A DNA stretch of 64,000 bases from an uncultured Gammaproteobacteria bacterium (GTDB taxonomy: Bacteria; Patescibacteriota; Microgenomatia; UBA8517): positions 762 through 64,761 of the forward strand of contig CAYSZS010000002.1 in NCBI GenBank assembly GCA_964435575.1, read 5' to 3'. Under the pieces are notes generated by a model, which saw only the letters and a list, made by a program, of their open reading frames with translations, did not search any database and was not told where the DNA came from. Below, piece by piece: positions 1 to 55,479 of this stretch. The stretch's first letter is position 1. Every line of letters starts with the position of its first letter. A program made the translations under genes and the position numbers.

Positions 1-956
1 ACAGATTCTACCTCGGCGTTTTGAAATACGCCGGAGAATATTATCAAGGTTCTCATAAAACCTTTATCAGCAAAAAGCTGTTTGGTGAAGTGCAAAAGCA
101 GGTTGAGAAAATTGAACGACCAAGACAAAAAGGCCACAATTTCGCCTTTGCAGGTCTTGCGACCTGCGGCGAATGCGGCGCCGCAATCACAGCAGAGCAA
201 CACATCAAAAAATACAAAAATTGTACTAGTCAAACTTTTATTTACTATCGCTGCACTAAAAAGCTCAAGCCTTGTACGCAAAAATATGTTTCAGAGTTGG
301 AACTTGAACCACAAATAAGGAAAATTGTTCGTGATTGCGGCTTGCACGAAAACTGGGAACCATATTTTGAAAAGTGGATTACAGCAACAGAGGTAAAAGA
401 CAGACTAGCCGTCGAAGTTGAAGAAAAGCAGATAGGCGAACAAATCCAAGAATCAGAAATAAAACTAAACAGACTTCTTGATGGTTATCTCGATCAGGTT
501 ATCGAACCTGAAATTTACAAACAAAAGAAGAATGAATTGTTTGATGAAAAACTTAAGTTAGAAGAGAAAAAATCGCAGGTTGAGAAAAACGGAAGTATTT
601 GGCTCGAACCTATGAGAGAATTCGTAAATTGTGCCTTGCAGGCGCAAAAAATCGCGCGCGCTGAAAATAATTGCCATGATTTGAGAGTCATGGCAAAAAA
701 AGTCGGCTCGAACTTCTTTTTAATGAATCGGCGGCTCTCGGCGAATTTGAATTTCCCCTTTGCAGCGCTGTCTGCGGAGGCGGGCGCAGCCAGCGCTATT
801 CCTACTTCCGACTCGATTTCCTTTTTGGTGAGCCTGGAAGGACTCGAACCTTCAACCATCACCTTAAGAGGGTGTTGCTCTACCGTTGAGCTACAGGCCC
901 TAATATTTCAAAATTGTAAGCAAAGCTTGGCACTGCTGTCGCATTGTAAGAGTTAA
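1..956 (+). CDS. Large serine recombinase, C-terminal portion (5' end outside window). The 3' end reads through the opposite-strand tRNA-Lys, so the last ~40 codons are probably not native
   Basis: Frame is open to position 1. Recombinase zinc-ribbon motif CGECGA...YYRC with a coiled-coil-like E/K-rich region. Stop at 954-956 lies beyond the tRNA at 826-900. Confidence 0.6.
   Translation, partial: RFYLGVLKYAGEYYQGSHKTFISKKLFGEVQKQVEKIERPRQKGHNFAFAGLATCGECGAAITAEQHIKKYKNCTSQTFIYYRCTKKLKPCTQKYVSELELEPQIRKIVRDCGLHENWEPYFEKWITATEVKDRLAVEVEEKQIGEQIQESEIKLNRLLDGYLDQVIEPEIYKQKKNELFDEKLKLEEKKSQVEKNGSIWLEPMREFVNCALQAQKIARAENNCHDLRVMAKKVGSNFFLMNRRLSANLNFPFAALSAEAGAASAIPTSDSISFLVSLEGLEPSTITLRGCCSTVELQALIFQNCKQSLALLSHCKS
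826..900 (-). tRNA. tRNA-Lys(CTT), CCA encoded
   Basis: Cloverleaf read by eye on the reverse complement: acceptor GGGCCTG/CAGGCTC, D-arm GCTCAACGGTAGAGC, anticodon loop CTCTTAA, T-arm GAAGGTTCGAGTCCTTC, then ACCA. Confidence 0.85.
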
Positions 957-994
957 TTGCTCTGTTTACAGATTCAATTTTAGCAAATTTAAGG

Positions 995-2254
995 TTAATT
1001 TGCTAATACTGTAGAAAAAACTGCGATTGAAGTCTCTCCTGGTTCAATATCTGAAAATATTACTTTTGGTTCAAGTTCGATGTCCAGATTAAATTTTCTT
1101 GATCTTATTTTTTCGTTCCCGGTCCAAATGGTTTGACCTTTGTTTTTTATTAGCGCTATTCCCCCGACCATTTTTCCGTTGTTTGGAAAAATGGGAGGAA
1201 AAATGATTGACAGGACGTCAACCGAAACAATTTGTACTGGTTTTCCTTGCTTTTTGGGCAATTTTTGCATTTCATAGTAAAATTCATAAAAGCCTCCGTC
1301 CTTATTCTTCCAGGAAAATATGTCAAAAGGCGGTGTTTGATAGTTTAGGATGAAGGGCGTAACCGCAACAATCCTTTCGTCATTCCAGGCAAGTTCTAAC
1401 GCGCCCTTAAGGTTATTCGTGATCGTTTCTGTATCTTTATAACCATTTGCTTTTGCATCCATGTCGTGTGCCCAGCCGGTTTCAGTGATAAAAACAGGCA
1501 AAGTTTTGGTCAAGCCGATACTTTTAAGAAATTTTAATTCCCACTCAAATGTGAGAACTGTTCCGCGGCCTACGTCGTCTTGAGATCCTGAAAAGTTAGG
1601 GTTTGGGTATGAATGTGAGGTCCAGCCGTCAAGATTTTCAAATATTTGTGATTTATGTTCTACCATTTTTTTAAGAAATTCAGCCTCGTTCATCGTTTCT
1701 TTACTTTTTGGTGCCGAGGCGTCGAAACCGGCGGGGAGAATAAAAAAGTCCTGGTTTCGGGATTTTAATTTTTTGGATAAAGTTTCCAAATAATCGGCAT
1801 ATTCTTCAGGACTAATTTGGTTACCCCACTCTTTACTGTGATTGGGTTCGTTTCCGACAACAAGATATCTATTTTTTATGACCCAATTTAAGGAATTTAA
1901 AAAAGAAACCCAGCCGTCTATTTCGTCAAAATTGGGTTTTTCCCATCCCCCGTCAAGTTGTTTTGTTGCAATTCTGACAATTGGGATGAGGTGAAGTCTA
2001 CGCATCTTGTCAAATACTTTTTGCCATCTTTCTGTATCTCTTTCGTCGGCTCTTATGACCAAGGTTACGTATCCCCAATCTCCTTGCGAGTTAACTAAGT
2101 TAGCGGCATCCTCAAGGTCATTTTCGTCCAAAATATGAATTCCAAAGAGATTGTTAGGAGCGGCTAGGGGGTTTTCGATAGCTTTTGTTTGTTTAGGGAA
2201 AAATAGAATACTAAATATGAATGTAAGTAAAATGATTAAACTTTTTCTTAGCAT
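995..2254 (-). CDS. Secreted glycoside hydrolase, clan GH-A (GH5-like). Start set at MLRKSLIILL; the longer ORF start would overlap the tRNA-Leu genes
   Basis: N-terminal hydrophobic signal/anchor. VVGNEPN (acid/base Glu) and FITETGW (nucleophile Glu) motifs. Confidence 0.7.
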   Translation of the reverse strand: MLRKSLIILLTFIFSILFFPKQTKAIENPLAAPNNLFGIHILDENDLEDAANLVNSQGDWGYVTLVIRADERDTERWQKVFDKMRRLHLIPIVRIATKQLDGGWEKPNFDEIDGWVSFLNSLNWVIKNRYLVVGNEPNHSKEWGNQISPEEYADYLETLSKKLKSRNQDFFILPAGFDASAPKSKETMNEAEFLKKMVEHKSQIFENLDGWTSHSYPNPNFSGSQDDVGRGTVLTFEWELKFLKSIGLTKTLPVFITETGWAHDMDAKANGYKDTETITNNLKGALELAWNDERIVAVTPFILNYQTPPFDIFSWKNKDGGFYEFYYEMQKLPKKQGKPVQIVSVDVLSIIFPPIFPNNGKMVGGIALIKNKGQTIWTGNEKIRSRKFNLDIELEPKVIFSDIEPGETSIAVFSTVLAN

Positions 2255-2322
2255 ATTTAAATATTCTACATGTATTGTTCCAGCTACTAAAGATAGCTTT
2301 ATTTTGATATAATGAGCGACGC

Positions 2323-2407
2323 GCTGAGATGCTGGAATTGGCAGACAGGCACGCTTCAGAAGCGTGTGCTCATTACGAGCGTGAGGGTTCAAATCCCTCT
2401 CTCAGCA
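2323..2407 (+). tRNA. tRNA-Leu(CAG), type II with long variable arm
   Basis: Acceptor GCTGAGA/TCTCAGC, anticodon stem CACGC/GCGTG with loop TTCAGAA, T-arm GAGGGTTCAAATCCCTC. Confidence 0.85.
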
Positions 2408-2411
2408 CAAT

Positions 2412-2493
2412 GCGGGAGTGCTGAAATTGGTATACAGGCATGCTTGAGGTGCATGTGTCGCAAGACGTGGAGGTTCAAGTCCTCTCTCCCGCA
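2412..2493 (+). tRNA. tRNA-Leu(GAG), type II; 4 nt after the previous tRNA
   Basis: Acceptor GCGGGAG/CTCCCGC, anticodon stem CATGC/GCATG with loop TTGAGGT, T-arm GGAGGTTCAAGTCCTCT. Confidence 0.85.
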
Positions 2494-2532
2494 CACATGA
2501 CAAAGATGATATAAGTTGATACAGTATAGATT

Positions 2533-2877
2533 ATGAAGAAGATAAAAGTATCAACAATCAAAGAAGCGCAGAAGTTAGTTAAAAAGTTTACAAAAGATAA
2601 TGGGTGGGAAGATTTTCCAAACATTGACAAGTTTGACCACTTACACGAAGAACTTATAGAAATGTCGCAACATCTTAGGTACAAATCTCAAGATGATAGA
2701 ATTAAGTGTATTCGAGATAAAAGAGTGATATTTAAAGACGGAATTGGTGATTTGTTTTTCGGCTTATGTAGGTTGGCAAACCAGTTAGAAGTGGATATTG
2801 AAGAAGCGTTTAACTTCGTCAAAGACCCAATTCTGACAAAATATAAACAGAAAAAATCAGAAAACAATAGGCTCTAA
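2533..2877 (+). CDS. MazG-like nucleotide pyrophosphohydrolase (small all-alpha NTP-PPase)
   Basis: EELIEM and DIEEAF acidic motifs typical of the MazG/HisE fold; 114 aa. Confidence 0.5.
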   Translation: MKKIKVSTIKEAQKLVKKFTKDNGWEDFPNIDKFDHLHEELIEMSQHLRYKSQDDRIKCIRDKRVIFKDGIGDLFFGLCRLANQLEVDIEEAFNFVKDPILTKYKQKKSENNRL

Positions 2878-3063
2878 GTCGTAAAAACGGGATATTAGAA
2901 TCAACACTTGTTCAGCTAGAAGTCTAACCACTACGGTTGGTTTCAGAAAAAGGATATAGAAATTAATAATCAAACTGATTATTAAAATTAGGATAAGCAA
3001 AGATAAGAGCCTGGAAATTCCTGAGGATTGGTTCAATCTTAGGAAACTTCCTCGCACAGGAAA

Positions 3064-3137
3064 GGTCGCTTGGCTCAGTTGGTTAGAGCGTCTCGTTTAC
3101 ATCGAGAAGGTCGGGGGTTCGAATCCCTCAGCGACCA
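3064..3137 (+). tRNA. tRNA-Val(TAC)
   Basis: GGTCGCT..GCTCAGTTGGTTAGAGC..TCTCG-TTTACAT-CGAGA..GGGGGTTCGAATCCCTC-AGCGACC-A. Confidence 0.9.
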
Positions 3138-3254
3138 CTCGTCGAAGCTCATCTTAAGCGCTACGTTTTCAATTAAATGAAAACTACGCTTTTTTCAGAT
3201 GGCTTCTCCTCTCAAAATCTCTTTGAGATTTTGTATAATACAACAACAATATTA

Positions 3255-3360
3255 CGAAGTAATTTTGAAAGGAGAAATGGCGGAGTGTTAAGGGGTAAGC
3301 GAAAACGGATTACTATAAACGAAGTCCATTTCGACGGACCGAGGTAGCCAGGATGGTTGG
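3255..3360 (+). repeat. Degenerate copy (~65-70% identity) of the ~85-nt upstream leader plus the first ~12-20 nt of tRNA-Leu(TAA); the intact copy is at 9941-10045
   Basis: Shared strings AATTTTGA(A/G)AGGAGAAAT, GTAAGCG, ATTTCGACG(G/A)(A/G)CCGAGGT(A/G)GC. Copy 1 lacks a T-arm, so it is not a tRNA. Confidence 0.5.
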
Positions 3361-3409
3361 TCCAAAGCTTATATTAAGTTAAGATAGAATTTAATTACCC
3401 CCTACAAGA

Positions 3410-3919
3410 TTACTTAGCTTTAAATCTAGCAGAAGCCCATAAAAATGGAATAGTATGAGCTAAGTTAAAAAAAAGATTTTCTTGTTTCATCTGAAAGGTC
3501 AAAACTCCCAAGCCGATCGTGGTCAAGGCAAACACATGTAGCTCTGATATTTTCTTACCACTTATTGGGAAATCTATTGCTATAGTGAAAGAAAAAATTA
3601 CAGTATAAAGTAGAAATATTACCTCAAAGATAAGTATTATTAAATCAAAAATTTCAGTCGGTGAAGAATAAATACCCGATATGAGCAAAACAAATAAAGG
3701 GATTAAAAAATATAATGGTGGCAATAGGAACAGCTTTTTAATTCTTTCCAGTTTTGTTCCTTCTTTTAGCAAGTTTGCCGCTATTTCAAGTCCGATTACT
3801 GGGAAAAAGATATCTAACGGTCTCAATATGTTTTGTGCATCGGTAAAATTGAGTTTTTCGACAGGAATTAAGCTATAGAAGAGAAATCTTCCTATGAAGA
3901 ATAAACCTACATAATTCAT
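3410..3919 (-). CDS. Hypothetical polytopic membrane protein
   Basis: 169 aa with several hydrophobic segments; no recognisable motif. Confidence 0.45.
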   Translation of the reverse strand: MNYVGLFFIGRFLFYSLIPVEKLNFTDAQNILRPLDIFFPVIGLEIAANLLKEGTKLERIKKLFLLPPLYFLIPLFVLLISGIYSSPTEIFDLIILIFEVIFLLYTVIFSFTIAIDFPISGKKISELHVFALTTIGLGVLTFQMKQENLFFNLAHTIPFLWASARFKAK

Positions 3920-4000
3920 TTCTTAACATTACCACTACTCTGGTAAGTTTGCTATAATATGCCCTAAGATAAGATTTCCTTTTTGGGGATTAATTTCCTT

Positions 4001-4022
4001 GCCGAGATAGCCAAGGTGGTTG
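4001..4022 (+). repeat. tRNA-Phe 5' fragment, copy 1 (acceptor plus D-arm only)
   Basis: GCCGAGATAGCCAAGGTGGT matches the first ~20 nt of tRNA-Phe at 4767. Confidence 0.6.
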
Positions 4023-4062
4023 TCTCACAAATATTGTTGAGGTTGAACGGAGGTGATAATTA

Positions 4063-4260
4063 ATGGAAAGAGTACCAGGTGATAAAGGTCATAGAACAAC
4101 AGAGGGTTCTCGAGACGATATTGTGCAAAAAGTTTTAGATATTGCACGAGGTATGCCAGGAGACCCATTAGTGAGTAGTGAATTTGATGAAAACGATAAG
4201 CCTTTAGCTGTAATAGAATTTGAACAACAATCTGAAAAAGAAGCAACTACTAGTGAATAA
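4063..4260 (+). CDS. Hypothetical small acidic protein
   Basis: 65 aa. Strong SD (GGAGGTG) 8 nt upstream of ATG. Bracketed by the tRNA-Phe fragments. Confidence 0.4.
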   Translation: MERVPGDKGHRTTEGSRDDIVQKVLDIARGMPGDPLVSSEFDENDKPLAVIEFEQQSEKEATTSE

Positions 4261-4270
4261 GTATTTTTAA

Positions 4271-4310
4271 GCTGAGATAGCCAAGGTGGTCACGGCGGGC
4301 GCCTGAAGAA
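4271..4310 (+). repeat. tRNA-Phe 5' half fragment, copy 2 (through the anticodon loop)
   Basis: GCTGAGATAGCCAAGGTGGTCACGGCGGGCGCCTGAAGAA versus intact GCTGCGGTAGCCAAGGTGGTCACGGCGGGTCTCTGAAGAA. Confidence 0.65.
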
Positions 4311-4347
4311 CAATTACAATTTATCAGGCAACATGTAAACTTAACGT

Positions 4348-4776
4348 GTGAAGATATGCTCTAAATGTAAAAAGAAAAAAGTTTTATTTCAGTTTTACAA
4401 GAGAAAAACAGGTCTGAGAGCTGGAAAGTATTATGAGAAGTGTAAATCCTGCATGAAAGTCAGGGGTAGAAAGTATTATACAGAGAATAGAGATAGGCAG
4501 TTGCCTTTAGCAAATATTAGACGACGGAGGTACTATAGAGAGAAACGCGATTTCATAATAAATGCCAAGAACAGGCCATGCGCAGACTGCGGAAATAAAC
4601 TTCCAAGTTATGTGATGGATTTTGATCATCGTGATGGGGGTGATAAGATCGTTGATATAGCTCGTGCTGTTACGGCGAATTGGTCTCTAAATAAAATTAA
4701 AGCAGAAATTGAAAAATGTGATATTGTTTGTGCTAATTGTCATAGAATGAGAACTTACGAGTATATGCTGCGGTAG
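4348..4776 (+). CDS. HNH endonuclease with N-terminal Cys-rich zinc finger; homing-endonuclease-like
   Basis: CSKCKKKK...CKSC zinc finger. HNH motif DFDHRDGGDK...N...CANCHRMRT. GTG start; the 3' end overlaps the tRNA-Phe 5' end by 10 nt. Confidence 0.7.
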   Translation: MKICSKCKKKKVLFQFYKRKTGLRAGKYYEKCKSCMKVRGRKYYTENRDRQLPLANIRRRRYYREKRDFIINAKNRPCADCGNKLPSYVMDFDHRDGGDKIVDIARAVTANWSLNKIKAEIEKCDIVCANCHRMRTYEYMLR

Positions 4777-4839
4777 CCAAGGTGGTCACGGCGGGTCTCT
4801 GAAGAAGATCAGATTCTGGTTCGATTCCAGACCGCAGCA
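4767..4839 (+). tRNA. tRNA-Phe(GAA) with an unusual 11-nt D-loop
   Basis: Acceptor GCTGCGG/CCGCAGC, anticodon stem GGTCT/AGATC with loop CTGAAGA, T-arm TCTGGTTCGATTCCAGA. Confidence 0.8.
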
Positions 4840-4859
4840 CACTTGAAAGGCAGGTTTCT

Positions 4860-4931
4860 GCGGGAGTAGTACAGTGGTAGTACGCTTCCTTGCCAAGGAA
4901 GAGGTCGCGGGTTCAAATCCCGTCTCCCGCT
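4860..4931 (+). tRNA. tRNA-Gly(GCC)
   Basis: GCGGGAG..GTACAGTGGTAGTAC..CTTCC-TTGCCAA-GGAAG..GCGGGTTCAAATCCCGT-CTCCCGC-T. Confidence 0.85.
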
Positions 4932-4936
4932 CAGAA

Positions 4937-5974
4937 TTAAGAAGGAATCGGAAGCCTTTCTTTGCCCTTTGCATCACGAACGGTATTGATAAGAAGCCTT
5001 CGGAGAATTTCCTGAAAAGAAATGCCGTATAAATCCAGAATATAAGCCAAGGCGCAATCCGTTTCCTTCGGACCGAATGCGGGGTTGGTGTTGGAATCGA
5101 TAAAAAAATATCTGCCCGACGAGTCCATCCTGATGTCAAACTTCCCGTAGTCCATCATTTTGGTTATATCGAATGCCTTTCTGACATAAGCCCTTAAAAG
5201 AGGTTCGTCGTATTTTTGATAATGTATGTTTGTCAGTTTTTTACTTAACCACTGATCCTCAAATGTCATAAATATATATTTTCTGTCCGCTCCCTCAAAC
5301 ACTTTCTCGGCCAAATAAACTTTTTTATTTAATCCCTCCAAAAGTATAGCCGTAAACTCTCTGCCAACTATAAATTCTTCAACCAAAACGGGTTGTTTAT
5401 AAGTTTGAATCAAAAACTTTATTCTTTCTCTCAGATGTCTTTCGTTTTCGGATATAGCGTCTTGAGTTATTTCCACCGCGCCGTGAATTTCATTCAGCTT
5501 TGAAATTAAAGGATAACGAAGCGTAGGGTCAAGAAAATCGGACGAAGAATTAAAAAGCTGATAATTAGGCACGGGAACTCCATTTTGTTGAAGCAGTTTT
5601 TTTATGACAAATTTATTGGTGTCCAGGGACATTCCCAAAATATCCGCACCAGTGTAAGGAATTTCGAGAAGTTCCAAAACTCCCGGGATGGATGAGGACA
5701 AATATTCATAGCCCTTGACGGAATCGACAAGATTTATTACCGCGTTAGGCTTATCTTTTTTTAGTTTTTGGGGAAGACCGGAATTTCCGGGATATAAAAT
5801 TGGTTTAATCTTCAGTTTTTCTAAATATTTAGATATAACTCTCGCGTCTTTATCGGCGCCTTTTTCGGTAATGAACTGCATCTCTGTCGGGAAATACTCC
5901 CTTTTGACGTCACTATAGATAATGCCTACTTTTTCGGGTATTTCGTAGCCATTTTTTCCATTCGCTATTTGCAT
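4937..5974 (-). CDS. ATP-grasp enzyme of the D-alanine--D-alanine ligase family
   Basis: C-terminal GKFDIRMDSSGRYFFIDSNTNPAFGP and EEFIVGREFTAILLEG resemble Ddl ATP-grasp motifs. Confidence 0.6.
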   Translation of the reverse strand: MQIANGKNGYEIPEKVGIIYSDVKREYFPTEMQFITEKGADKDARVISKYLEKLKIKPILYPGNSGLPQKLKKDKPNAVINLVDSVKGYEYLSSSIPGVLELLEIPYTGADILGMSLDTNKFVIKKLLQQNGVPVPNYQLFNSSSDFLDPTLRYPLISKLNEIHGAVEITQDAISENERHLRERIKFLIQTYKQPVLVEEFIVGREFTAILLEGLNKKVYLAEKVFEGADRKYIFMTFEDQWLSKKLTNIHYQKYDEPLLRAYVRKAFDITKMMDYGKFDIRMDSSGRYFFIDSNTNPAFGPKETDCALAYILDLYGISFQEILRRLLINTVRDAKGKERLPIPS

Positions 5975-6068
5975 ATTAATACGCTTAAAAATATCGATTA
6001 TTTAGATGTACTTGTCAACTACGAAATGAAAAGTTAATAAATTTTTGATAAAATACAGAGATATTATT

Positions 6069-6143
6069 GCCCCTGTAGCTCAATGGATAGAGCGGCTCCC
6101 TTCTAAGGAGTAGATGAGAGTTCGATTCCCTCCAGGGGCACCA
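6069..6143 (+). tRNA. tRNA-Arg(TCT), CCA encoded
   Basis: GCCCCTG..GCTCAATGGATAGAGC..GCTCC-CTTCTAA-GGAGT..TTCGATTCC..CAGGGGC-A-CCA. Confidence 0.85.
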
Positions 6144-6153
6144 TTTGTGCAAG

Positions 6154-7299
6154 CTAAATAAACCTAACTTGCATGCCTTCGGCTAGCTTAGTCGAAAGTG
6201 AAACCTCTTGACCTGGAAATTTTGAACCCGCCCCCCAAATTTTTGCCTTTATTTTTTCTTTAACAAAATCTTCCCCTAATTTCTCCCCAACGTCGTACAA
6301 TGTAGAACCCACTTTCATTATAATCGGGTTATCAAAATCAGGGTCTTCGTCCGGTCGTACCAGATAGCCCCTCAAGAAATTAAGTGATAGCCACATTTTT
6401 TCTTTCAACTCGGTAAGACCGGTTCCTTTTTCAGCGCTGATAAATAGTGGAGTAACGGTTGCAGCCTCAAATACACCCGGCGGCCTGCCTGTCGGAAAGG
6501 CAGGGTGGATTAGCTTGGCACCCGTTACTTTGTTGTTTAAGTCAGCTTTATTAATAATAGAAATTGAGGGTACGTATACGCGGTTTAGAGAAAAAGCGTC
6601 AATTAGCCTTTCTATTGTCAGCTTTTCATTGATGGTTATTTCGGCGTTTTTAATTCCCAACTCTTGTGCAATAGATTTAATAGTTTCTTTAGTAAGGTCT
6701 TGCTTGATGTTTGAATGGAGAGTTAATCCTCCTGAAACTTTCTTGTCTATAATTACATTTGGTCGCACAATGTTGAGGCGTATGCCGTTTTCCTCCAAAG
6801 TTTTTTTAATTCTTTCAGTTGCTTCAGGGCGGTCAACATCGGTCATAAGTATTATTAAGTCTGCCCCCCGAGCTACCGATAAAACTTCCCTACCTCTCCC
6901 CCTCCCTTCTTCAGCCCCCTCGATAAGCCCAGGAACATCAAGTATCTGAATTCGAGCGTTTTTGTAAATCATCATTCCGGGAATAACGTTTACCGTCGTA
7001 AAAGCGTAGGGAGCAACCTTGCTTTGGGCGTTTGTCAATTTGTTAATAAGAGTTGATTTTCCCGCTGAGGGGGGGCCGATTAAGATTACGGCTGCATCAC
7101 CTTGTTTTTTAACGGCGTATCCGCCTCCGCCACCCTTTTTTACAGACTCAACCCGAAGACCGTCTTTTAGCTTTGCAAGCTTTGCGCGAAGCCTGCCAAT
7201 ATGGTGCTCTGTGCCTTTGTGATAGGGAGTATCACGAATCTCTTTCTCGATCCGCTTGATATTCATATGAGTATTTTCGGAATTGGTTAAGTGCACCAT
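6154..7299 (-). CDS. DRG/Rbg-family GTPase (Obg superfamily) with C-terminal TGS domain; start may instead be the internal Met at 7266
   Basis: G1 GPPSAGKST, FTT, DVPGLIEGAEEGRGRGR (classic DRG), NKAD. C-terminal TGS-like tail. Confidence 0.75.
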   Translation of the reverse strand: MVHLTNSENTHMNIKRIEKEIRDTPYHKGTEHHIGRLRAKLAKLKDGLRVESVKKGGGGGYAVKKQGDAAVILIGPPSAGKSTLINKLTNAQSKVAPYAFTTVNVIPGMMIYKNARIQILDVPGLIEGAEEGRGRGREVLSVARGADLIILMTDVDRPEATERIKKTLEENGIRLNIVRPNVIIDKKVSGGLTLHSNIKQDLTKETIKSIAQELGIKNAEITINEKLTIERLIDAFSLNRVYVPSISIINKADLNNKVTGAKLIHPAFPTGRPPGVFEAATVTPLFISAEKGTGLTELKEKMWLSLNFLRGYLVRPDEDPDFDNPIIMKVGSTLYDVGEKLGEDFVKEKIKAKIWGAGSKFPGQEVSLSTKLAEGMQVRFI

Positions 7300-7362
7300 G
7301 TTTGGAATTATATCAAAGAAGACTTCCTCCCACTCAAAGTTAGAAGCTAAATAAGCTTTTGG

Positions 7363-7746
7363 TTATTTTCTCTTATCCATGTACTGCCAAGCTTTGTATT
7401 GGACAAAATTAGCAATAACTGCAATTCCGGCAACGTACAGATAGCTTGCAATGCCGACACCGGTTATAAAGGCAAATCTGGCAATTAACCAAACAGTTGC
7501 AAAATTCATGACCAAATATGCCAGCATCATTGGCACGTTTTCTTTATACGGATACTCCAAGTCTTTTAAGAAAGCTTCGGTATGCCATAGCACTAAGTTC
7601 CAGATAAACCCGCTAAAGACGATTGCCTGATATGGCGCAAAGATGCTATTTCCGATGCTAACTGCGTTGGGTAAAAAAAGATTTGCCAAGTACAAAATTG
7701 CCGAGTTAATTAGCCAGAAACCTAAAAATTTCTGATAGCGTTTCAT
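7363..7746 (-). CDS. Hypothetical membrane protein
   Basis: Start at MKRYQKF, preceded by an AGGAGGGGGTGAG Shine-Dalgarno. 4 hydrophobic helices. Confidence 0.5.
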   Translation of the reverse strand: MKRYQKFLGFWLINSAILYLANLFLPNAVSIGNSIFAPYQAIVFSGFIWNLVLWHTEAFLKDLEYPYKENVPMMLAYLVMNFATVWLIARFAFITGVGIASYLYVAGIAVIANFVQYKAWQYMDKRK

Positions 7747-7942
7747 ATTCTCACCCCCTCCTATGGGATAGCTCACTTAGGAGTATCTAATGGGACCATG
7801 TTGGATAGCTTCGCCTACAACGCAAAGCGGTGCCAAGCTATGCTTATCCAACTGTGACCCTTACTTCTTTGCCAAAACTTATCTAAATTCAGTATAATAT
7901 AATTCAAGAGTTGAAAAAATAAGCAATACTGATGAGAAAATT

Positions 7943-8015
7943 GCCTCTGTAGCTCAACGGATAGAGCACCTGTCTTCGGAACAGGGAATGAGGGTTCGAT
8001 TCCCCCCAGAGGCAC
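7943..8015 (+). tRNA. tRNA-Arg(TCG)
   Basis: GCCTCTG..GCTCAACGGATAGAGC..CCTGT-CTTCGGA-ACAGG..GGGTTCGATTCCCC..CAGAGGC-A. Confidence 0.85.
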
Positions 8016-8180
8016 TGAAGGCAATTTTCGAATTTACTTAGATCCAGACAATAATACTGCAGAGGAAGGTAAGCCGGCACCCAAACATACTCCTAGTCCC
8101 GATTTTTTATATAATTCAAGAAATTAATCTCTCTTTTAGTTATTGACATAAGTTACCTGTAATGTGTTATATAACATAAA

Positions 8181-9902
8181 GTGAAGTTTATTATTGTCTC
8201 CGGTGGTGTACTATCTGGTCTCGGTAAGGGAGTAACTACGGCTTCAATTGGCCTCCTTCTTAAATCCCGCGGAATAAAAGTTACTGCCATGAAGTGTGAT
8301 ATGTACCTGAATATTGATGCTGGTACTATGAACCCTATTGAGCACGGTGAAGTCTTTGTTACCCACGACGGAGTTGAAACGGATCAAGACTTGGGTCATT
8401 ATGAACGCTTTATCAATGAAATTTTAACCAGGGAAAATTATTTGACAAACGGTCAGGTTTACAGGATTGTTTTGGACAAGGAAAGAGCTCTCGAGTACGG
8501 AGGTAAGTGCGTAGAGCCTTATCATCAAATACCTCCTGAAATAATTTTAAGATGGATTGCAGCAGGGCGAGTCCATAACGCCGACGTAGTTTTAATCGAA
8601 TTGGGCGGAACCGTTGGAGAGTATGAAGGACTTTTGTTTTTTGAAGCTGTTCGAAGAATTAAATTGAAAAGCCCCATGGATGTCATTTTGATTCATGTAG
8701 GCTATCTTCCTGTTCCTCCTTCAATCGGAGAGCTAAAATCAAAACCAATTCAACAGTCGGTTCAGATTTTAAATAGTTTAGGTTTAACGCCTGATATTAT
8801 AGTTGGGCGTGCAGAAAAAGAAATCGACCAAAAAAGGAAAGAAAAAATAGCTCTAGCATCCGGTGTTTTAGTAGAAAATATTATTTCAAACCCTGACGTT
8901 AATAGTATTTATGAAATCCCGATTGTTTTAAGAAAACAAAAGTTAGATGAAATAATTATTAAACAATTGGGTTTGAAAGCAAAAAGAGAAGATCTTCGGG
9001 ATTGGGAAATAATGCTGGAAAAATCCAAGAAAATCCGAGACGTTGTAAAAATTGGAATTGTCGGCAAATATCAAAAAACAGGTGATTATACTCTCGAAGA
9101 CAGTTACGTTTGTGTTGTTGAGAGTCTAAAACATGCAGGATTACATTTTAATGTACAACCGCGGTTTTCTTGGATTGATTCGGAAAGTTTGGAAGACTTA
9201 ACAGATTCTGAGATTAAGGATCGTTTGGGGGGAATGGATGCGATAGTGGTTCCTCAAGGGTGGGGAAGGCGTGGAGTCGAGGGGAAAATTAAAGCTGCAA
9301 AATATGCTCGGGAAAATAAACTTCCCTACCTTGGTCTTTGTTTTGGCATGCAAATGGCATCAATTGAGTTTGGCAGAAATGCCGTCGGACTTAAAAAAGC
9401 AAATTCTTCAGAGGTGGATCCAAGGACTCCTCATCCTGTTATTCATATAATGCCTAATCAACGAGATTATTTGAATAAAAAACAATATGGCGGAACGATT
9501 CGCCTTGGCGCTTGGCCCTGCGTAATTAGAAAAGGCACACTACTTGAAAAAGCTTATAAAAAATTTGGCGGAGGAAAATTCAGACCTTGGTACCAACCCA
9601 ATCCCCTGTTTAAAAACAAATCACCAATCACTAACCCGCCTGCCGGACGGGCAGGTCACGAATCACTAATCTTCGAGCGTCACCGCCACAGATACGAGTT
9701 TAATAATAAATACAAAAGGCTGTATGAAAAGAAAGGATTTGTTTTTTCAGGGACTTCACCGGACGGAAAGCTAGTTGAAGCAATTGAGTTGAAAGAACAT
9801 CCCTTTTTTGTCGGGACTCAATTCCACCCGGAATATTTGAGCCGTCCCCTATCCCCACATCCAATATTCTTATCCTTTATTGAAGCTATTGTGAATAAAT
9901 AG
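8181..9902 (+). CDS. pyrG: CTP synthase
   Basis: N-terminal synthetase domain (VSGGVLSGLGKG) and C-terminal GATase (GLCFGMQ); 573 aa; GTG start. Confidence 0.95.
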   Translation: MKFIIVSGGVLSGLGKGVTTASIGLLLKSRGIKVTAMKCDMYLNIDAGTMNPIEHGEVFVTHDGVETDQDLGHYERFINEILTRENYLTNGQVYRIVLDKERALEYGGKCVEPYHQIPPEIILRWIAAGRVHNADVVLIELGGTVGEYEGLLFFEAVRRIKLKSPMDVILIHVGYLPVPPSIGELKSKPIQQSVQILNSLGLTPDIIVGRAEKEIDQKRKEKIALASGVLVENIISNPDVNSIYEIPIVLRKQKLDEIIIKQLGLKAKREDLRDWEIMLEKSKKIRDVVKIGIVGKYQKTGDYTLEDSYVCVVESLKHAGLHFNVQPRFSWIDSESLEDLTDSEIKDRLGGMDAIVVPQGWGRRGVEGKIKAAKYARENKLPYLGLCFGMQMASIEFGRNAVGLKKANSSEVDPRTPHPVIHIMPNQRDYLNKKQYGGTIRLGAWPCVIRKGTLLEKAYKKFGGGKFRPWYQPNPLFKNKSPITNPPAGRAGHESLIFERHRHRYEFNNKYKRLYEKKGFVFSGTSPDGKLVEAIELKEHPFFVGTQFHPEYLSRPLSPHPIFLSFIEAIVNK

Positions 9903-10024
9903 TAAAATATACATGTATTCGTAATTATTTAAACAAAATTCCGTAGGAATTTTGAGAGGAGAAATTACGAAACGATAAGCAATAAGCGTAAGCGTATTGT
10001 GATAAGTGAAGTATATTTCGACGA

Positions 10025-10112
10025 GCCGAGGTGGCGGAATTGGTAGACGCGAGGGCCTTAAGAGCCCTTGTCCCGATGGGACGTGGGGGTTCGAGTCCCC
10101 CTTTCGGCACCA
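10025..10112 (+). tRNA. tRNA-Leu(TAA), type II, CCA encoded
   Basis: GCCGAGG..GCGGAATTGGTAGACGC..AGGGC-CTTAAGA-GCCCT, long variable arm, T-arm GGGGGTTCGAGTCCCCC, CCA. Confidence 0.9.
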
Positions 10113-10195
10113 CGGAGTGTGGCTCAGTTGGCAGAGCGCGCGCTTTGGGAGCGCGAGGTCCCCGGTTCGAATCCGGGCACTCCGACTCAATATTA
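10113..10195 (+). tRNA. tRNA-Pro(TGG), immediately abutting tRNA-Leu
   Basis: CGGAGTG..GCTCAGTTGGCAGAGC..CGCGC-TTTGGGA-GCGCG..CCCGGTTCGAATCCGGG-CACTCCG-A. Confidence 0.85.
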
Positions 10196-10249
10196 TTTGT
10201 TAAAAAGTTGTAAGCTTAAGCGGGCCTGCCCGCCGAAGCTTCAGCGTAG

Positions 10250-10323
10250 GCGGGATTAGTTGAGCGGTTCAACATTTGCTTTCCAAGCAAAGAAGAGGGG
10301 TTCGACTCCCCTATCCCGCTCCA
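10250..10323 (+). tRNA. tRNA-Gly(TCC), CCA encoded
   Basis: GCGGGAT..GTTGAGCGGTTCAAC..TTTGC-TTTCCAA-GCAAA..AGGGGTTCGACTCCCCT-ATCCCGC-T-CCA. Confidence 0.85.
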
Positions 10324-10381
10324 CTAGCATTAAGGGACAAGCTCTGCTTATAACGCCCCCAGCTGTGCGAAGAGAAGGAAG

Positions 10382-11329
10382 TTACTTTTCTTTTCCGACT
10401 ATAATGATTACGTCGTAAGTGGAGTCTTCTTCAAGAGTAGTATCGGATTTAACGACGTCATAAGTATCTGAAAGAGCACTCCTTATTTCATCAAAGACTT
10501 TTTCGGACAAATCTTTTTTTAGACTGATAGAAGTAGCGGTATAGTCGTATGACTGGGCATTTCCGGTTGTTATTTTATCTTCCATAAAACCACTTTCTGT
10601 GAGCAAATCTTTTGCCTTCCCCGCTACCCCTGCTGTTCCGGAGCCGTTAAGAACGCTGAGAGTTAGAGTGCTTATATCAACCTCTGTCTCCGGCTCCTGA
10701 GTCGGGCTGGGCGTTGAAGTTTCCTCCTTTTCAGGAGTTTCACTAATAGATTCCTCGCTAACCGATTGTTTATAATAGAAAATTCCTCCTACCAAAGCTC
10801 CCAAGATAAGAAGAATGATTAGAGTAAAAACTATAAACTTTGTATTTGGTCCGCCTTTTTTCTCTACCTCTTTTGTCGTATCCGGTCTGACTTCTTTGAG
10901 CCACTCTTTTATTTCGTCGGAGGATACATCCTCTTTCCCCTTTCCTTTTTCCTCGGTCATTTCTTGAGTAGGTGTTTCAGATTCAGACAGATCTTCCTTT
11001 TCCTTTTGAGGCTCCGGAGTTAGAACGCTTTCACTGGACTTGGCGGCACCCTCTGCTCCTGAAGCGATATCAGACGATTTTTGAGAATCAAGCTGACTAA
11101 ATGACGTTATTTTCGGAGTATCCTGAGAAGTTGATGCTCGAAGCTTGGTTTCTTCCTCATCTCTTGGTTTTGTTTCAGCTATACTTTCCGTAGATTCTTT
11201 CGCTGGAAGTTGAGTTTCAACTTCTTCCGGTTCTTCACTTATCTCCTCTACTTTTATTTTTGGTTTTGTCGCTTTGGTTTTATCAGCCATGCTTTTACCA
11301 TTGTGAAACATTTGGGGTTGCTTTGTCAA
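10382..11329 (-). CDS. LytR_C (LytR/CpsA/Psr C-terminal) domain protein with acidic disordered N-terminus and one TM segment
   Basis: C-terminal VLNGSGTAGVAGKAKDLL...GNA...TT pattern typical of LytR_C. E/S/T-rich low-complexity N-terminus. TM segment FIVFTLIILLILGALVGGIFYY. Confidence 0.55.
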   Translation of the reverse strand: MTKQPQMFHNGKSMADKTKATKPKIKVEEISEEPEEVETQLPAKESTESIAETKPRDEEETKLRASTSQDTPKITSFSQLDSQKSSDIASGAEGAAKSSESVLTPEPQKEKEDLSESETPTQEMTEEKGKGKEDVSSDEIKEWLKEVRPDTTKEVEKKGGPNTKFIVFTLIILLILGALVGGIFYYKQSVSEESISETPEKEETSTPSPTQEPETEVDISTLTLSVLNGSGTAGVAGKAKDLLTESGFMEDKITTGNAQSYDYTATSISLKKDLSEKVFDEIRSALSDTYDVVKSDTTLEEDSTYDVIIIVGKEK

Positions 11330-11370
11330 TACACCTGGGATTTGATAAAATACAAGGTGTAATTATTCAA

Positions 11371-11444
11371 GGTGGTGTGTGCCGAACGGTTTAGGCGCTG
11401 CTTTGTGGAGGCAGTTTTAGCGGGTTCGACTCCCGTACACCACC
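11371..11444 (+). tRNA. tRNA-His(GTG) with genomically encoded G-1
   Basis: Extra 5' G pairing with discriminator C (8-bp acceptor G-GTGGTGT/ACACCAC-C). Anticodon stem CTGCT/GGCAG with loop TTGTGGA. T-arm GCGGGTTCGACTCCCGT. Confidence 0.85.
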
Positions 11445-11521
11445 CAAGTTTTCTAGCCTCAAGCAAATATATTGAATTATTCCTACTTAAAATCGCGCTC
11501 GAACCAAAATATAATACTTTT

Positions 11522-13656: not shown

Positions 13657-14097
13657 ATGCAAAGTCAAACACCTACGACACAAAAACCTTCTCAAGATAA
13701 TCAAACTGCCAATTCTGATACTCAAAGTAATTTCACAATTTTAATTGTCGAGGATGATCAGGTTTTGATGAAAATGTATACCCAGAAACTGGTTTCTGAA
13801 GGTTTTAAGGTGCTAAATGCAGTCGACGGAGAGGAAGCTTTTGCTGTTTTTGTCAAAGAAAAAATCGACCTAATAATAACCGACATCATGCTTCCCAGAG
13901 TTTCGGGAATTGAGTTTTTACAAAAAATAAGGGTTACTCCAAAAGGTAAAAACGTACCTGTTATAGTTTGGTCAAACTTAATGCTGGAAGAAGAGAAGAA
14001 ACAAGCTCTTGCCCTTGGAGCCAACGAATATGTTGTCAAAGGTCAACTAAAGTTGGAGGATATGGCTGCGCTCGTCAGGAAATATATGACGAGCTAA
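13657..14097 (+). CDS. Single-domain response regulator (CheY-like REC) with a short Q/T-rich N-terminal tail
   Basis: ILIVEDD...D(phospho-acceptor)IMLP...T...K pattern; no output domain. Confidence 0.75.
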   Translation: MQSQTPTTQKPSQDNQTANSDTQSNFTILIVEDDQVLMKMYTQKLVSEGFKVLNAVDGEEAFAVFVKEKIDLIITDIMLPRVSGIEFLQKIRVTPKGKNVPVIVWSNLMLEEEKKQALALGANEYVVKGQLKLEDMAALVRKYMTS

Positions 14098-14102
14098 AAA
14101 GT

Positions 14103-14381
14103 TCAGTAGTTTACGCTAAAGTGTTTATCTTTATATTTTTCGTAGGAGATAAATTTTTTTGCGACTTCCTTATCAACTTTCTGAATTTCAACTATTACTC
14201 TGTCTCTAATTTGGAGTGAGGTTACTTGGGGCTTTTCCCTTTCCAGAAGCCATGTGCTAATTCTTTCTGTTAGCTTTAGGCTAGCTACTTGATCAAGGCC
14301 AGCCGCTTTTAGTACCCTTATTATTTTTTCGGGGTTATATGCTTCTAATTTTCCGTTTCTTTTGACAACCTTAATGTCCAT
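14103..14381 (-). CDS. Stand-alone ATP-cone domain protein
   Basis: MDIKVVKRNGKLEAYNPEKIIRVLKAAG... matches ATP-cone (NrdR/RNR N-terminal). 92 aa. Convergent, 5 nt from the REC gene stop. Confidence 0.7.
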   Translation of the reverse strand: MDIKVVKRNGKLEAYNPEKIIRVLKAAGLDQVASLKLTERISTWLLEREKPQVTSLQIRDRVIVEIQKVDKEVAKKFISYEKYKDKHFSVNY

Positions 14382-14495
14382 TTATGTTCATTTCCAAGCC
14401 TAGTTAAGTATAGCAGTATATCTTTATTGATGTAAACCCCACCGGTTTCGTTAATTGGGACTGAACTGTTTGGTGATATAATTGAACGAAATCAC

Positions 14496-16211
14496 GTGGT
14501 AACCATATACGAAAATCAGGATTTACAAGTCGAGAAAGCCGAATTGGACAGTAATAGAGATATTTCAAATAAAGATTCGTCAACTCCCGATTCCGAATCC
14601 GGACTATCGAATTTCATTGAAAAGTTCCTTTCTACGTTTGAGAAAAAACTTTCCGTTCTGAAAAAAGACGGCGAACCCACTGTTCAGGTCAGCGAGGTAT
14701 TGGGAGGCTTGGCAAGGCTTTATGAGCGTATTCGAACGACGGTTGAATATAAAGGCGAACACGTTTTAAGAAGAAATGCCATTGAGAGGATTTTAAAAAG
14801 ATTGGTTTGGCAGGAAGAGAGTGTCAGAACCGATGTAAAAAACCGTCGGGTGGCCGAATCTCTGCTGAAAGAGCTAATCTGGGCTCGCTATCTTCCCAAT
14901 AACGCCGTACCCAAAAGTATCATTGATGTTGTTGAGAGGACGGTCGATAAATACATTTATTTTTTGAGAAATCTTGACGATCTTCCCTCAGGAATTTCAG
15001 AAACCAAAGTCAGAAATTGGATTTGGGGAGTAGCATCGAGCGAGATTGAGGATATAGTTGATCCTTCTTATCGGGAGCTGTATGTGCAATTAATGTATGA
15101 CTGGTTTATTGACACTTTTAATTGGGAAGAGCCGGGACTGGATGAACACGATAAGCAAATTCAAATTTACCTGGCAATCCATAGAGCTTTCACCAAATCG
15201 GATGACTCAATAATGAGGTATCATTTGCTTTTAAAAGAGGAGCCCGATTGGCAAAACGCCGAGAGGAGTGAAATAAATAAGTTTATACTCAAATTTTCTG
15301 ATATCTATTCTGAAATAGAGGGGCACCTAAATTTTACCGGAAGACTCGCTCTTTATAGGAAAATACAAAGAAACGCTGCTGCATTTGACGTTTTTAGAGA
15401 AATTGCATCAAAAGAAAAGTTAAAGCTTAGGGAATTAATCAATAATAAAGCCAAATTTGAAGAAAGGGTAAGAAATGAGTGCGATACGAAATATAAGCAG
15501 ATGGCAAAGCGCGTGAGTACTGGAATTATAAGAAGCATAATCTATATTTTTTTGACAAAGGTCGTCTTTGCGATGCTCATTGAAATCCCTTATGAAGTTT
15601 TTATGTACGGGGACGTCCGTTATATCCCACTGGCAATTAACATGATAATCCCGCCTTCAATGATGTGGCTTATCGGCTTTTCTATCCAGGTACCGGGTGC
15701 CAAAAATACAGAAAGTATCGTAACAAGACTTTCGTCGGTTTTATACAAAGAACGTGATAAAGTGAAACAGATTTTCTCGCTCAGAAAGCTTAAACGAAAT
15801 ACAGTCCTTTCTACTTTATTCGGAATTTTATACTCTTTTATTTTTATCACGGTTTTCGGCGGTATTACCTATGTATTGACAATACTTAACTTCAGCATCT
15901 TCGGCATTTTGATCTTCTTTATGTTTTTATCTTTGGTCATGCTTTTTGCATTCAGGGTGAGATTTAACGCAAGTCAACTGAGAGTTGGAAGCGAGGACGA
16001 AGGGTTTTTAGGTCATTTAACCAGCTACTTTACTCTCCCCTTTTTAAATTTTGGATTTTATCTTTCCCGGGGTCTTGCAAAGCTCAACTTTTTTACGATA
16101 CTTTTGGATTTTTTAATAGAAATACCTTTGAAGAACATAATCGAAGTTTTTGAAGAGTGGACCTCATTTTTGAGGGAGAAAAAAGAAGAAGTGGTTGAAA
16201 TACCGGAATAA
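14496..16211 (+). CDS. Hypothetical protein with ~350-aa soluble N-terminal region and multi-TM C-terminal region
   Basis: No recognisable motifs; hydrophobic helices from ~residue 350. Confidence 0.45.
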   Translation: MVTIYENQDLQVEKAELDSNRDISNKDSSTPDSESGLSNFIEKFLSTFEKKLSVLKKDGEPTVQVSEVLGGLARLYERIRTTVEYKGEHVLRRNAIERILKRLVWQEESVRTDVKNRRVAESLLKELIWARYLPNNAVPKSIIDVVERTVDKYIYFLRNLDDLPSGISETKVRNWIWGVASSEIEDIVDPSYRELYVQLMYDWFIDTFNWEEPGLDEHDKQIQIYLAIHRAFTKSDDSIMRYHLLLKEEPDWQNAERSEINKFILKFSDIYSEIEGHLNFTGRLALYRKIQRNAAAFDVFREIASKEKLKLRELINNKAKFEERVRNECDTKYKQMAKRVSTGIIRSIIYIFLTKVVFAMLIEIPYEVFMYGDVRYIPLAINMIIPPSMMWLIGFSIQVPGAKNTESIVTRLSSVLYKERDKVKQIFSLRKLKRNTVLSTLFGILYSFIFITVFGGITYVLTILNFSIFGILIFFMFLSLVMLFAFRVRFNASQLRVGSEDEGFLGHLTSYFTLPFLNFGFYLSRGLAKLNFFTILLDFLIEIPLKNIIEVFEEWTSFLREKKEEVVEIPE

Positions 16212-17955: not shown

Positions 17956-18357
17956 TCATTTAACCAACCAATAAATGAAGGAATTAATAAGAGAGAGGAT
18001 AAAAGAGAAACCTACAAATGCTAAAAATTCGTGGAAATTGAGGGCGGGAATGTCTATCCACTTACTTGAGACTCCTGCGAAAATAAAGGCAATAATTTTA
18101 AAATCTTTGATAATTAAAGTCACTATATATAAAACGACAGCGGACGAAACCCATCTGAAAAGACCGAAGGTTACAAGATTAAGGGGAAGTAGTAGGAGGT
18201 TGATAATGGGTTTTGCGAGAAGAAACGTTCCTGTTAGTGCGGCCCCTGCGACTAGTAAAGTAAATATCCCTTTTTCAAATATCATTCCCGAGGCAACTTT
18301 CGATATGGCCCAAAGAGAGAAAGTGTCGATAACATAGTGGCGGAGTATGCGTTTCAT
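17956..18357 (-). CDS. Hypothetical 4-TM membrane protein (DUF360/holin-4-like topology)
   Basis: 133 aa; four hydrophobic helices. Confidence 0.4.
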   Translation of the reverse strand: MKRILRHYVIDTFSLWAISKVASGMIFEKGIFTLLVAGAALTGTFLLAKPIINLLLLPLNLVTFGLFRWVSSAVVLYIVTLIIKDFKIIAFIFAGVSSKWIDIPALNFHEFLAFVGFSFILSLINSFIYWLVK

Positions 18358-18404: not shown

Positions 18405-19197
18405 ACAAGACATAATCAACATCCGATGTTGTTTAAATTGGAATATCGGGAAACATGTTATAATGTTTTTATGCCGATTAGAAAAACCCCAATAGTTACA
18501 GATCAAATTTATCATGTGTTTAATCGAGGAATTAATAAGCAACCCATATTTTTTACGAAAAGAAATTATCTGAGAGCTTTGGACACTATTAAATACTATC
18601 GTTTCTACAAACCACCACTTCCGTATTCAAAGTATATTAAGCTTACAGATAACATTAAAAACTTGTTAAAAGAAAGTATCAGAAGTGTAGAAAAAGGTGT
18701 TCATATTATCTCTTATACTTTGATGCCCAACCACTATCATTTTTTGCTTAAACAGTTAAAAGACGGTGGCATTAATAATTTTATTAGAAATTTTCAGATA
18801 AGTTATACAAAATATGTTAATAAAAGATTCGACCGTACCGGAGCCCTAATTCAAAGTCAGTTTAAGGCAGTCCTAATAGAAGACGATGAACAATTAATGC
18901 ACATTAGCAGGTATATCCACCTTAACCCACATACATCGTTTGTGGTCAAAGATCTGAAAGAACTTAAAAGTTATCCTTGGTCTTCGCTAGCAGAATATTT
19001 AGGAGTTGCAAAAAATGGTTTTTGCTCAAAAGATATAGTCCTCTCACTTTTTAAAGAGAAAGATATTTACTGGAAATTTATAGCGAATCAAGCTGACTAC
19101 CAGAAGAGATTAGATAAAATTAAACATTTAACTCTTGACTAACTCACCCCGATGTTAAAACGTAATCAAAATCGGATTTTGTCTGAATGGGAATATC
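18405..19197 (+). mobile_element. IS200/IS605-family-like element (Y1/RAYT-type transposase) with hairpin-bearing ends
   Basis: LE: CATAATCAACATCCGATGTTGTTTAAATTGGAATATCGGG. RE: CCGATGTTAAAACGTAATCAAAATCGGATTTTGTCTGAATGGGAATATCGGG. Both end motifs recur in a 230-bp miniature copy at 49464-49693. Confidence 0.6.
18471..19142 (+). CDS. tnpA: Y1 (HUH) transposase, IS200-like/REP-associated tyrosine transposase
   Basis: YHVFNRG motif; HUH motif MPNHYHFLL; catalytic Tyr region ISRYIHLNP; 224 aa. Confidence 0.75.
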   Translation: MPIRKTPIVTDQIYHVFNRGINKQPIFFTKRNYLRALDTIKYYRFYKPPLPYSKYIKLTDNIKNLLKESIRSVEKGVHIISYTLMPNHYHFLLKQLKDGGINNFIRNFQISYTKYVNKRFDRTGALIQSQFKAVLIEDDEQLMHISRYIHLNPHTSFVVKDLKELKSYPWSSLAEYLGVAKNGFCSKDIVLSLFKEKDIYWKFIANQADYQKRLDKIKHLTLD

Positions 19198-39220: not shown

Positions 39221-39652
39221 TCAACGATTTTTAAACGGTCGTTCTAAAACAGTTGAACGTTGATAATGAGCGAAAAGTTCCTCTACCCTGTCGTGGAAAT
39301 TTCTCTTGCCGCGCCTTCTTATATGCGGCAGTAAACTTCCTGAAAAATTTTTGGGAATATGGGCTATTTCGTGAAGTAATATTCTATCTTTTTCGCGCTC
39401 AGATAAATTATCAAATTTTTCACTTAAAACCTCAATTATATATGCCGGCTTTTGCTTAAGGGCAAGTTGCCAAATTTTTGACAGACCCCAGATTCTTGCA
39501 TAAGCCCTTGATGAAGAATTTAGCGAACGGAAGCAATATAGCGAAGAAGTTTTTACCCACTCTAGATTAAGTGATTTCTTTAAATGAAGTACCCTTTTTT
39601 TGATATCGGGAGCTGATTTCCACTCCACATTTACCCATTTTTTTCTTCGCAT
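39221..39652 (-). CDS. Putative Zn-metallopeptidase-like protein (SprT/DUF45-like HExxH)
   Basis: ILLHEIAHI motif; 143 aa. Confidence 0.3.
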   Translation of the reverse strand: MRRKKWVNVEWKSAPDIKKRVLHLKKSLNLEWVKTSSLYCFRSLNSSSRAYARIWGLSKIWQLALKQKPAYIIEVLSEKFDNLSEREKDRILLHEIAHIPKNFSGSLLPHIRRRGKRNFHDRVEELFAHYQRSTVLERPFKNR

Positions 39653-55386: not shown

Positions 55387-55479
55387 AGATAAATATTACA
55401 GCATTATTCGGAGTATATACAATACAAGAAAATGACTTTTTTTGAAAATATTTATTAAAAGGTATATATTTATCCTAGT

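Follow-up and report, generated by a model that had tools for sequence, protein, structure and literature searches.

Two convergent gene pairs, each joining a single-domain response-regulator receiver to a stand-alone ATP-cone protein, are present in the window (the whole 64,000-nt stretch of DNA analysed here), and this pairing is conserved in two paralogous lineages. The finding is one of known domains in an undescribed partnership, and it suggests that nucleotide sensing and two-component signalling are connected in a way not described before. The original prediction had treated the pairing as uncharacterised, and the searchable literature agrees: it describes neither cone-only proteins, nor a cone–receiver association, nor an ATP-cone in connection with the Candidate Phyla Radiation (CPR), and contains no known single-domain receiver paired with an ATP-cone; publications treating the ATP-cone in substance are devoted to ribonucleotide reductases (RNRs) or NrdR, and the few mentioning both the ATP-cone and response regulators bring the latter up only in passing. 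The interpretation preferred here, with its chances put at about even, is that the cone and the orphan receiver form a functionally coupled nucleotide-sensor/receiver pair, the basis for this being the domain identities, the functional residues, the adjacency in two cone clades and one natural fusion. The two cone proteins of the window, cone1 and cone2, are each 100% identical to a hypothetical protein of Woesebacteria RIFCSPHIGHO2_01_FULL_39_17. The window is thus part of the genome of an ultra-small groundwater bacterium of the Candidatus Woesebacteria, which belong to the Microgenomates group of the Patescibacteria/CPR.

Pair 1 is composed of REC1 (13657–14097, + strand), a 146-aa single-domain receiver assigned to Pfam Response_reg, and cone1 (14103–14381, − strand), a stand-alone ATP-cone protein of 92 aa, referred to as 'type 1', with the C-terminal tail YEKYKDK; 5 nt (14098–14102) lie between both stop codons. 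REC1 begins at the same ATG in the public gene call, and its N-terminus carries a low-complexity, Q/T/S-rich tail of roughly 25 aa, which type-1 receivers have in general. The residues kept in REC1 are the acidic pair (EDD), the phospho-acceptor Asp (ITDIMLP), Ser (VWSNL) and Lys (YVVKG). A promoter-like site, TTTACA-18-TGnTATACT, which is a consensus match only, is located 26 nt upstream of cone1 (14407–14436, − strand), back-to-back with a + strand site of the gene for a 571-aa membrane protein (14496–16211, + strand), divergent from cone1. The predicted membrane protein consists of a soluble N-terminal half and a multi-pass C-terminal half and has no Pfam or NCBIfam match.

In pair 2, REC2 (55480–55842, + strand), a single-domain receiver of 120 aa also assigned to Response_reg and containing the canonical residues (EDD, LLDIMLP, VITNL, YVIKA), is followed after 1 nt between the stop codons (55843) by cone2 (55844–56101, − strand), a stand-alone ATP-cone protein of 85 aa referred to as 'type 2'. 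A promoter-like site (55442–55470, + strand), likewise a consensus match only, ends 10 nt ahead of the REC2 start codon, and a gene encoding a GH15-family glycosidase (56146–57216, − strand) lies 44 nt upstream of cone2 on the same strand. Because cone2 is placed 44 nt downstream of this gene and has a good ribosome-binding site but lacks a separate promoter-like site, it is probably co-transcribed with the GH15 gene as a part of the GH15 operon. The expression set-up of the two cones differs (an own promoter-like site for cone1 vs. a position behind GH15 for cone2); what copies 1 and 2 share is a receiver at the 3′ end of the cone. All boundaries match public gene calls, and the positions, strands and stop-to-stop gaps of 5 and 1 nt are exactly as originally given.

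A profile check with PF03477 and PF00072 upheld the domain assignments of the original prediction: all four proteins score above the Pfam gathering cut-offs (cone1 46.0 and cone2 38.1 bits vs. 25.8 for ATP-cone; REC1 81.3 and REC2 72.2 bits vs. 30.2 for Response_reg), and no further domains were found in them by Pfam. The copies had been called paralogous, and their identity of 35% for the cones and 38% for the receivers accords with this. A profile scan of every ORF of the 64-kb window revealed no receivers beyond REC1 and REC2 and no cones beyond cone1 and cone2.

AlphaFold 2 modelling of cone1 with 21 homologues (pLDDT 82) predicted a β-hairpin (E4-6, E12-14) followed by four helices. In a Foldseek search of this model against the PDB, all 50 matches listed were RNR or NrdR entries, the best with TM-scores of 0.75–0.83, and they included Prevotella copri NrdD, L. 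blandensis NrdB, P. aeruginosa NrdA and the NrdR proteins of E. coli and S. coelicolor. The closest solved protein by sequence, and the best match among the known systems compared, is the cone of the class III RNR of P. copri (NrdD; PDB codes 8p23 and 8p28; E = 4e-8, TM-score 0.75, 30% identity), which has in common with the stand-alone proteins the β-hairpin and four-helix fold, the V-x-K-R-D-G motif and a basic C-terminal helix. The NrdD cone, however, is the N-terminal domain of a 700-aa enzyme, whereas cone1 and cone2 consist of a cone and nothing else and have no reductase in their vicinity.

A profile search run exhaustively over 1.84 billion representative proteins placed cone1 and cone2 in a sizeable family, with 1,185 clusters reaching E ≤ 1e-3 and 274 reaching the stricter E ≤ 1e-10 (clusters at 50% identity). 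Almost all of the best 150 clusters contain proteins of 80–95 aa, which are therefore cone-only proteins. Among 146 family members, the hairpin motif V-x-K-R-D-G is conserved (K7 100%, R8 81% with a further 14% K, D9 78%, G10 87%), as are E13 (92%), K19 (95%), S/T55 (99%), Y80 (92%) and K84 (85%); W44 and R59 (92% each) are specific to the family and are replaced by H and Q in the P. copri cone. The cone of P. copri NrdD binds ATP or dATP, two molecules in either case, and K7/R8 and the C-terminal basic residues of the family align with the triphosphate-contacting residues named for that protein (PMC11226230). The free cone most likely binds adenine nucleotides, ATP or dATP, and possibly two of them per domain; nucleotide binding as such is a well-grounded reading, given the conserved phosphate-contacting residues and the predicted fold. 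No NCBIfam family names the stand-alone cones.

NrdR, a small cone-containing regulator that oligomerises in a nucleotide-dependent manner, is also structurally similar to cone1 (TM-score about 0.79). It has, however, an N-terminal Zn-ribbon for DNA binding, whereas cone1 and cone2 start three residues before the cone hairpin and, over their 85–92 aa, contain no Cys4 motif. An identity with NrdR was rejected, since the Zn-ribbon is missing and the NrdR model TIGR00244 gave 16.5 bits for cone1 against a cut-off of 124.65 and no match for cone2. An identity with an RNR subunit was rejected as well, no catalytic or radical-generating domain being present in the proteins, the window or the fetched loci.

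A different possibility is that nucleotide metabolism is regulated in trans by the free cone, which might for example be an allosteric subunit for a cone-less reductase or an NrdR remnant, and to which the receiver is irrelevant. RNR and NrdR cones are indeed the closest matches in both sequence and structure, some family members are labelled 'NrdR family' by JGI, and NUDIX genes adjoin some cones. This explanation appears very improbable nevertheless, as neither a reductase nor an nrdR gene occurs in the window or beside any of the 17 cone lineages, a Zn-ribbon is lacking, the score with the NrdR model is low, and the P. copri cone does not have the invariant residues W44 and R59 of the family. 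That a cone can regulate something other than a reductase has a precedent in the N-terminal ATP-cone of 2-phosphoglycerate kinase (NCBIfam NF003259), although that protein is a fused enzyme and not a free cone, and the match to its cone region is weak, with 19.7 bits far under the cut-off of 343.

Several unusual architectures were encountered among the cone proteins. P0063, a protein of 678 aa from a JGI metagenome, carries ATP-cones at both termini with a middle part of roughly 480 aa that has a weak CARDB match. The type-1 cone of L013 (1832–4273; also L018 and L019; Woesebacteria RIFCSPLOWO2_01_FULL_39_10) has no ATG, GTG or TTG at the usual position, and its frame continues without a stop in the upstream direction, by way of a transmembrane helix, into an 813-aa ORF with Cys-rich repeats; either the cone is fused to a membrane anchor or it uses a non-canonical start. 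L014, which is labelled as an uncultured Gammaproteobacteria MAG, encodes a cone-only protein with 41% identity to cone1; there, the cone overlaps the beginning of a multi-pass membrane protein of 509 aa, no receiver lies nearby, and the taxonomic label may be a binning error.

All partner receivers possess the same set of residues (EDD, DIMLP, SNL or TNL, and VVK or VIK) and, judging from their sequences, look like functional single-domain response regulators. Single-domain receivers without an output domain, such as CheY, DivK and Spo0F, act via protein–protein contacts. REC1 and REC2 resemble CheY, DivK, Spo0F and PilH in being receiver-only proteins with the full set of phospho-acceptor residues. 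The DivK-type NCBIfam model gave 60 bits on a partner receiver against a cut-off of 160, and neither cheA, cheW or MCP genes nor flagellar genes were found in the window or the related loci, so the receivers are not chemotaxis CheY proteins. Unlike in the classical settings of single-domain regulators, no kinase or phosphotransferase gene was found in the window: histidine kinase domains (HisKA, HATPase_c) were not detected in the window ORFs scanned against Pfam, nor, for the 10 kb around each pair, among the publicly available domain calls. The adjoining cognate kinase gene of a classical two-component system is missing beside both receivers, and a kinase was seen in the L006 locus only. In a neighbour-joining analysis of 131 CPR receivers, the partner receivers of type-1 cones, those of type-2 cones and the receiver of the natural fusion described below fell into three different groups; therefore, the cone is not tied to one receiver lineage.

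The recurrence of the pairing was assessed in loci gathered by exact-protein look-ups and by scans with one peptide pattern of genomes (4 loci) and metagenomes (15 loci), all ORFs of which were re-scored with the cone and receiver profiles; cones at least 50% identical to cone1 were counted as type 1. Among the 17 distinct cone lineages whose downstream neighbour was visible, 9 have a convergent receiver, and they belong to two separate clades of cones. Beside type-1 cones, it is located at a distance of 4 nt in L016, 4 nt in L012 (Woesebacteria 39_61) and 1 nt in L013 (39_10); beside type-2 cones, at 0 nt in L007, 1 nt in L008/9/10, 0 nt in L015 (Woesebacteria 39_32), 0 nt in L027 and 15 nt in L035. 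The gap between the stops measures 0–15 nt in 10 of 10 instances. The background in the same loci is 3 receivers among about 173 other ORFs, all three in L006, which corresponds to an odds ratio of 64 and a Fisher p-value of 6e-9 that overstates the case, because the lineages are related but were counted as independent. The expectation that a convergent pair of this kind would recur in other genomes is borne out, with the pairs documented in Woesebacteria-type contigs. The cone is not 'locked' to the receiver as had been proposed, since the receiver is absent from about half of the related cones: type-1 cones without it are those of L001 (which has a RimK-type ATP-grasp gene instead), L004 (an APH-type gene) and L036, and type-2 cones without it are those of L011 and the more distant L029 and L030. 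In a neighbour-joining tree of the short cone sequences, built without support values, the cones of L001 and L011, which have no receiver, branch within receiver-paired clades, and this position suggests a secondary loss of the receiver.

The original description of the neighbourhood was right about the receiver and missed a second conserved neighbour of each cone, the 571-aa membrane protein for copy 1 and the GH15 glycosidase for copy 2. The 571-aa gene is found within 0–2 genes of type-1 cones in four lineages, including L016, L013 and L001, the last of which lacks the receiver. The GH15 gene is located upstream of type-2 cones, on the same strand, in at least six lineages, including L029 (355–1455), where it overlaps the cone by 8 nt, and L030 (2542–3651). 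Through GH15, the cone is also associated with carbohydrate breakdown, and this second association is the deeper one, extending farther into the type-2 clade than the receiver does (L029/L030).

This depth, together with the many related cones that have no receiver, is what might be expected if the adjacency were simply an inherited gene order without any coupling, in which an ancestral junction was copied by segmental duplication and was so tight that any split would damage a gene. Both types may go back to one pair that was duplicated, which would mean fewer independent events, and a junction of 0–5 nt leaves almost no room for a gene-sparing rearrangement, so the adjacency may persist passively, for mechanical reasons. 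The surroundings are partly syntenic (type 1 has SBP5 and the 571-aa gene in common, type 2 NAGPA and GH15), other convergent junctions of the window are tight or overlap too, and pairs are documented in Woesebacteria-type contigs only. With the exception of the receiver-less L014, all organism names seen are Woesebacteria, and the association may therefore be a clade-restricted synteny. A scan of viral contigs gave no matches.

Other observations argue for more than inherited order. Both flanks of the pair are wholly different from those of the window in L012 and L035, and the pair is still intact. Genes have been inserted beside it, namely a LigT or Beta_propel gene that separates GH15 from the cone, and one or two genes that separate the 571-aa gene from the cone, whereas no gene inserted between the cone and the receiver was found among the loci compared. 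The layout has stayed the same despite a divergence to about 30% identity in the cones and about 38% in the receivers, and the type-1 and type-2 partner receivers are not exclusive sister groups, as they should be had the pair been duplicated as a unit, in the neighbour-joining tree, which carries no support values. Furthermore, an independent fusion occurs in a third clade of cones, in which another cone is the neighbour of a two-component operon. On this balance, inherited gene order without coupling is regarded as a possible, though rather unlikely, explanation.

The fusion, P0115, is a 211-aa cone–receiver protein, in which the cone occupies residues 4–74 (Pfam) and the receiver residues 94–206, with a linker of about 8 residues. 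Its reading frame is uninterrupted and offers no separate start codon for the receiver part; at the same time, P0115 was found only once, on a contig of 1.3 kb, and an A7 run is present at the linker. AlphaFold 2 predicted two intact domains (pLDDT 87.5); no fixed interdomain interface is predicted, because the pTM score is 0.58 and the linker is disordered. A tblastn search of P0115 against plasmids revealed generic receiver matches only. The close relatives of the P0115 receiver are all stand-alone receivers; one of them, in L034, belongs to a cone-less receiver-kinase-receiver-pilB-pilC operon. In L006, an 82-nt spacer lies between the cone and a divergent operon of a GAF-PAS histidine kinase and three receivers. 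The fusion weakly supports the pairing as an independent case. In different CPR contigs, the slot directly upstream of pilB/pilC is occupied by a cone in L029 (1773–4857) and L030 (3984–6935) and by the receiver-kinase-receiver set in L034 (5001–10402); the cone and the receiver–kinase set may be interchangeable at this position.

The convergent layout also raises the possibility that the genes are linked at the RNA level only, by overlapping 3′ ends of the mRNAs and the resulting interference or antisense pairing (excludon-like), through which transcription of one gene would depress the other, without any protein interaction. Antisense-coupled expression had been one of the two options of the original prediction, and it is the missing intergenic space that suggests it. 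The constancy of the 0–15-nt spacing is in line with this, each gene apparently has its own upstream signal, and no terminator-like hairpin or strong inverted repeat was detected at either junction; the only terminator-like site after REC2 is located about 110 nt inside cone2. As there is no terminator-like element at the junctions, the 3′ ends of the transcripts probably overlap, and such an overlap could, from the sequence, provide reciprocal control of expression. Nevertheless, the number of terminator-like sites is no different from that in shuffled sequence, and two other convergent junctions of the window, between unrelated genes, overlap outright (28756/28753 and 43308/43279), which makes this layout a property of the genome. 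An Rfam search over the window found tRNAs only and no RNA element at the junctions. A link at the RNA level only, which leaves the fusion P0115 unexplained, is considered unlikely.

Functional coupling of the cone and the receiver could proceed as follows. The cone would report the adenine-nucleotide status through nucleotide-dependent self-association or binding of a partner, as in RNRs and NrdR, and the orphan receiver would get its phosphoryl group, at the conserved Asp, from an unlinked kinase or from a small phosphodonor. The two proteins might cooperate by direct contact or on a shared target, so that nucleotide or energy status and phosphorelay status would merge into one output. The tail-to-tail layout without a spacer, in which each transcript probably runs into the other gene, could also tie the expression levels of both genes together. 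The small size of the survey, whose scans used a single peptide pattern, was counted against coupling. The orientation was counted against it too, as genes that converge do not share a transcript and functional partners mostly point the same way.

Perhaps free ATP-cones represent an unrecognised class of partner or output proteins for orphan receivers, the cone reading the ATP/dATP state, the receiver reading an external phosphorelay signal and their complex gating a process at the core of the scavenging way of life of these reduced bacteria, such as type IV pilus-driven DNA uptake or glycan breakdown. This broader proposal, hinted at by the shared pilB/pilC slot, the GH15 operon of type-2 cones and the fusion P0115, is speculative and fairly improbable as it stands. 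CPR bacteria possess few regulators and rely on nucleotides that they scavenge. The cone-only proteins, a sizeable family, are repeatedly tied to receivers by gene order, and once by fusion; this link would, if functional, extend ATP/dATP sensing beyond deoxynucleotide synthesis and give a handle on how CPR bacteria join internal nucleotide status with external signals. It also offers a simple experimental system, with two small soluble proteins, two paralogous pairs in one genome and a natural fusion as a positive control.

Small signalling proteins without a sensor appear to be common in this genome; a 213-aa GGDEF protein lacking a sensor domain (62578–63219, − strand) is encoded within 7 kb of pair 2, and a Crp-type cNMP-binding regulator (52793–53476, − strand) within 2 kb of it. 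Genes of mobile or defence type are scattered over the window and encode a Y1 transposase (18426–19142), an AbiEii toxin (44041–44697), a phage-type metallopeptidase (39221–39652) and a holin-family protein (17956–18357). Twelve tRNA genes are clustered in the first 11.4 kb (826–11446), among short ORFs and a recombinase-like gene (21–956). CTP synthase is encoded by one ORF of 573 aa (8181–9902, + strand); in the near-identical assembly GCA_000993305.1 (L031, 14477–16023), it is represented by two genes, CTP_synth_N and GATase, a split that is probably due to an assembly frameshift.
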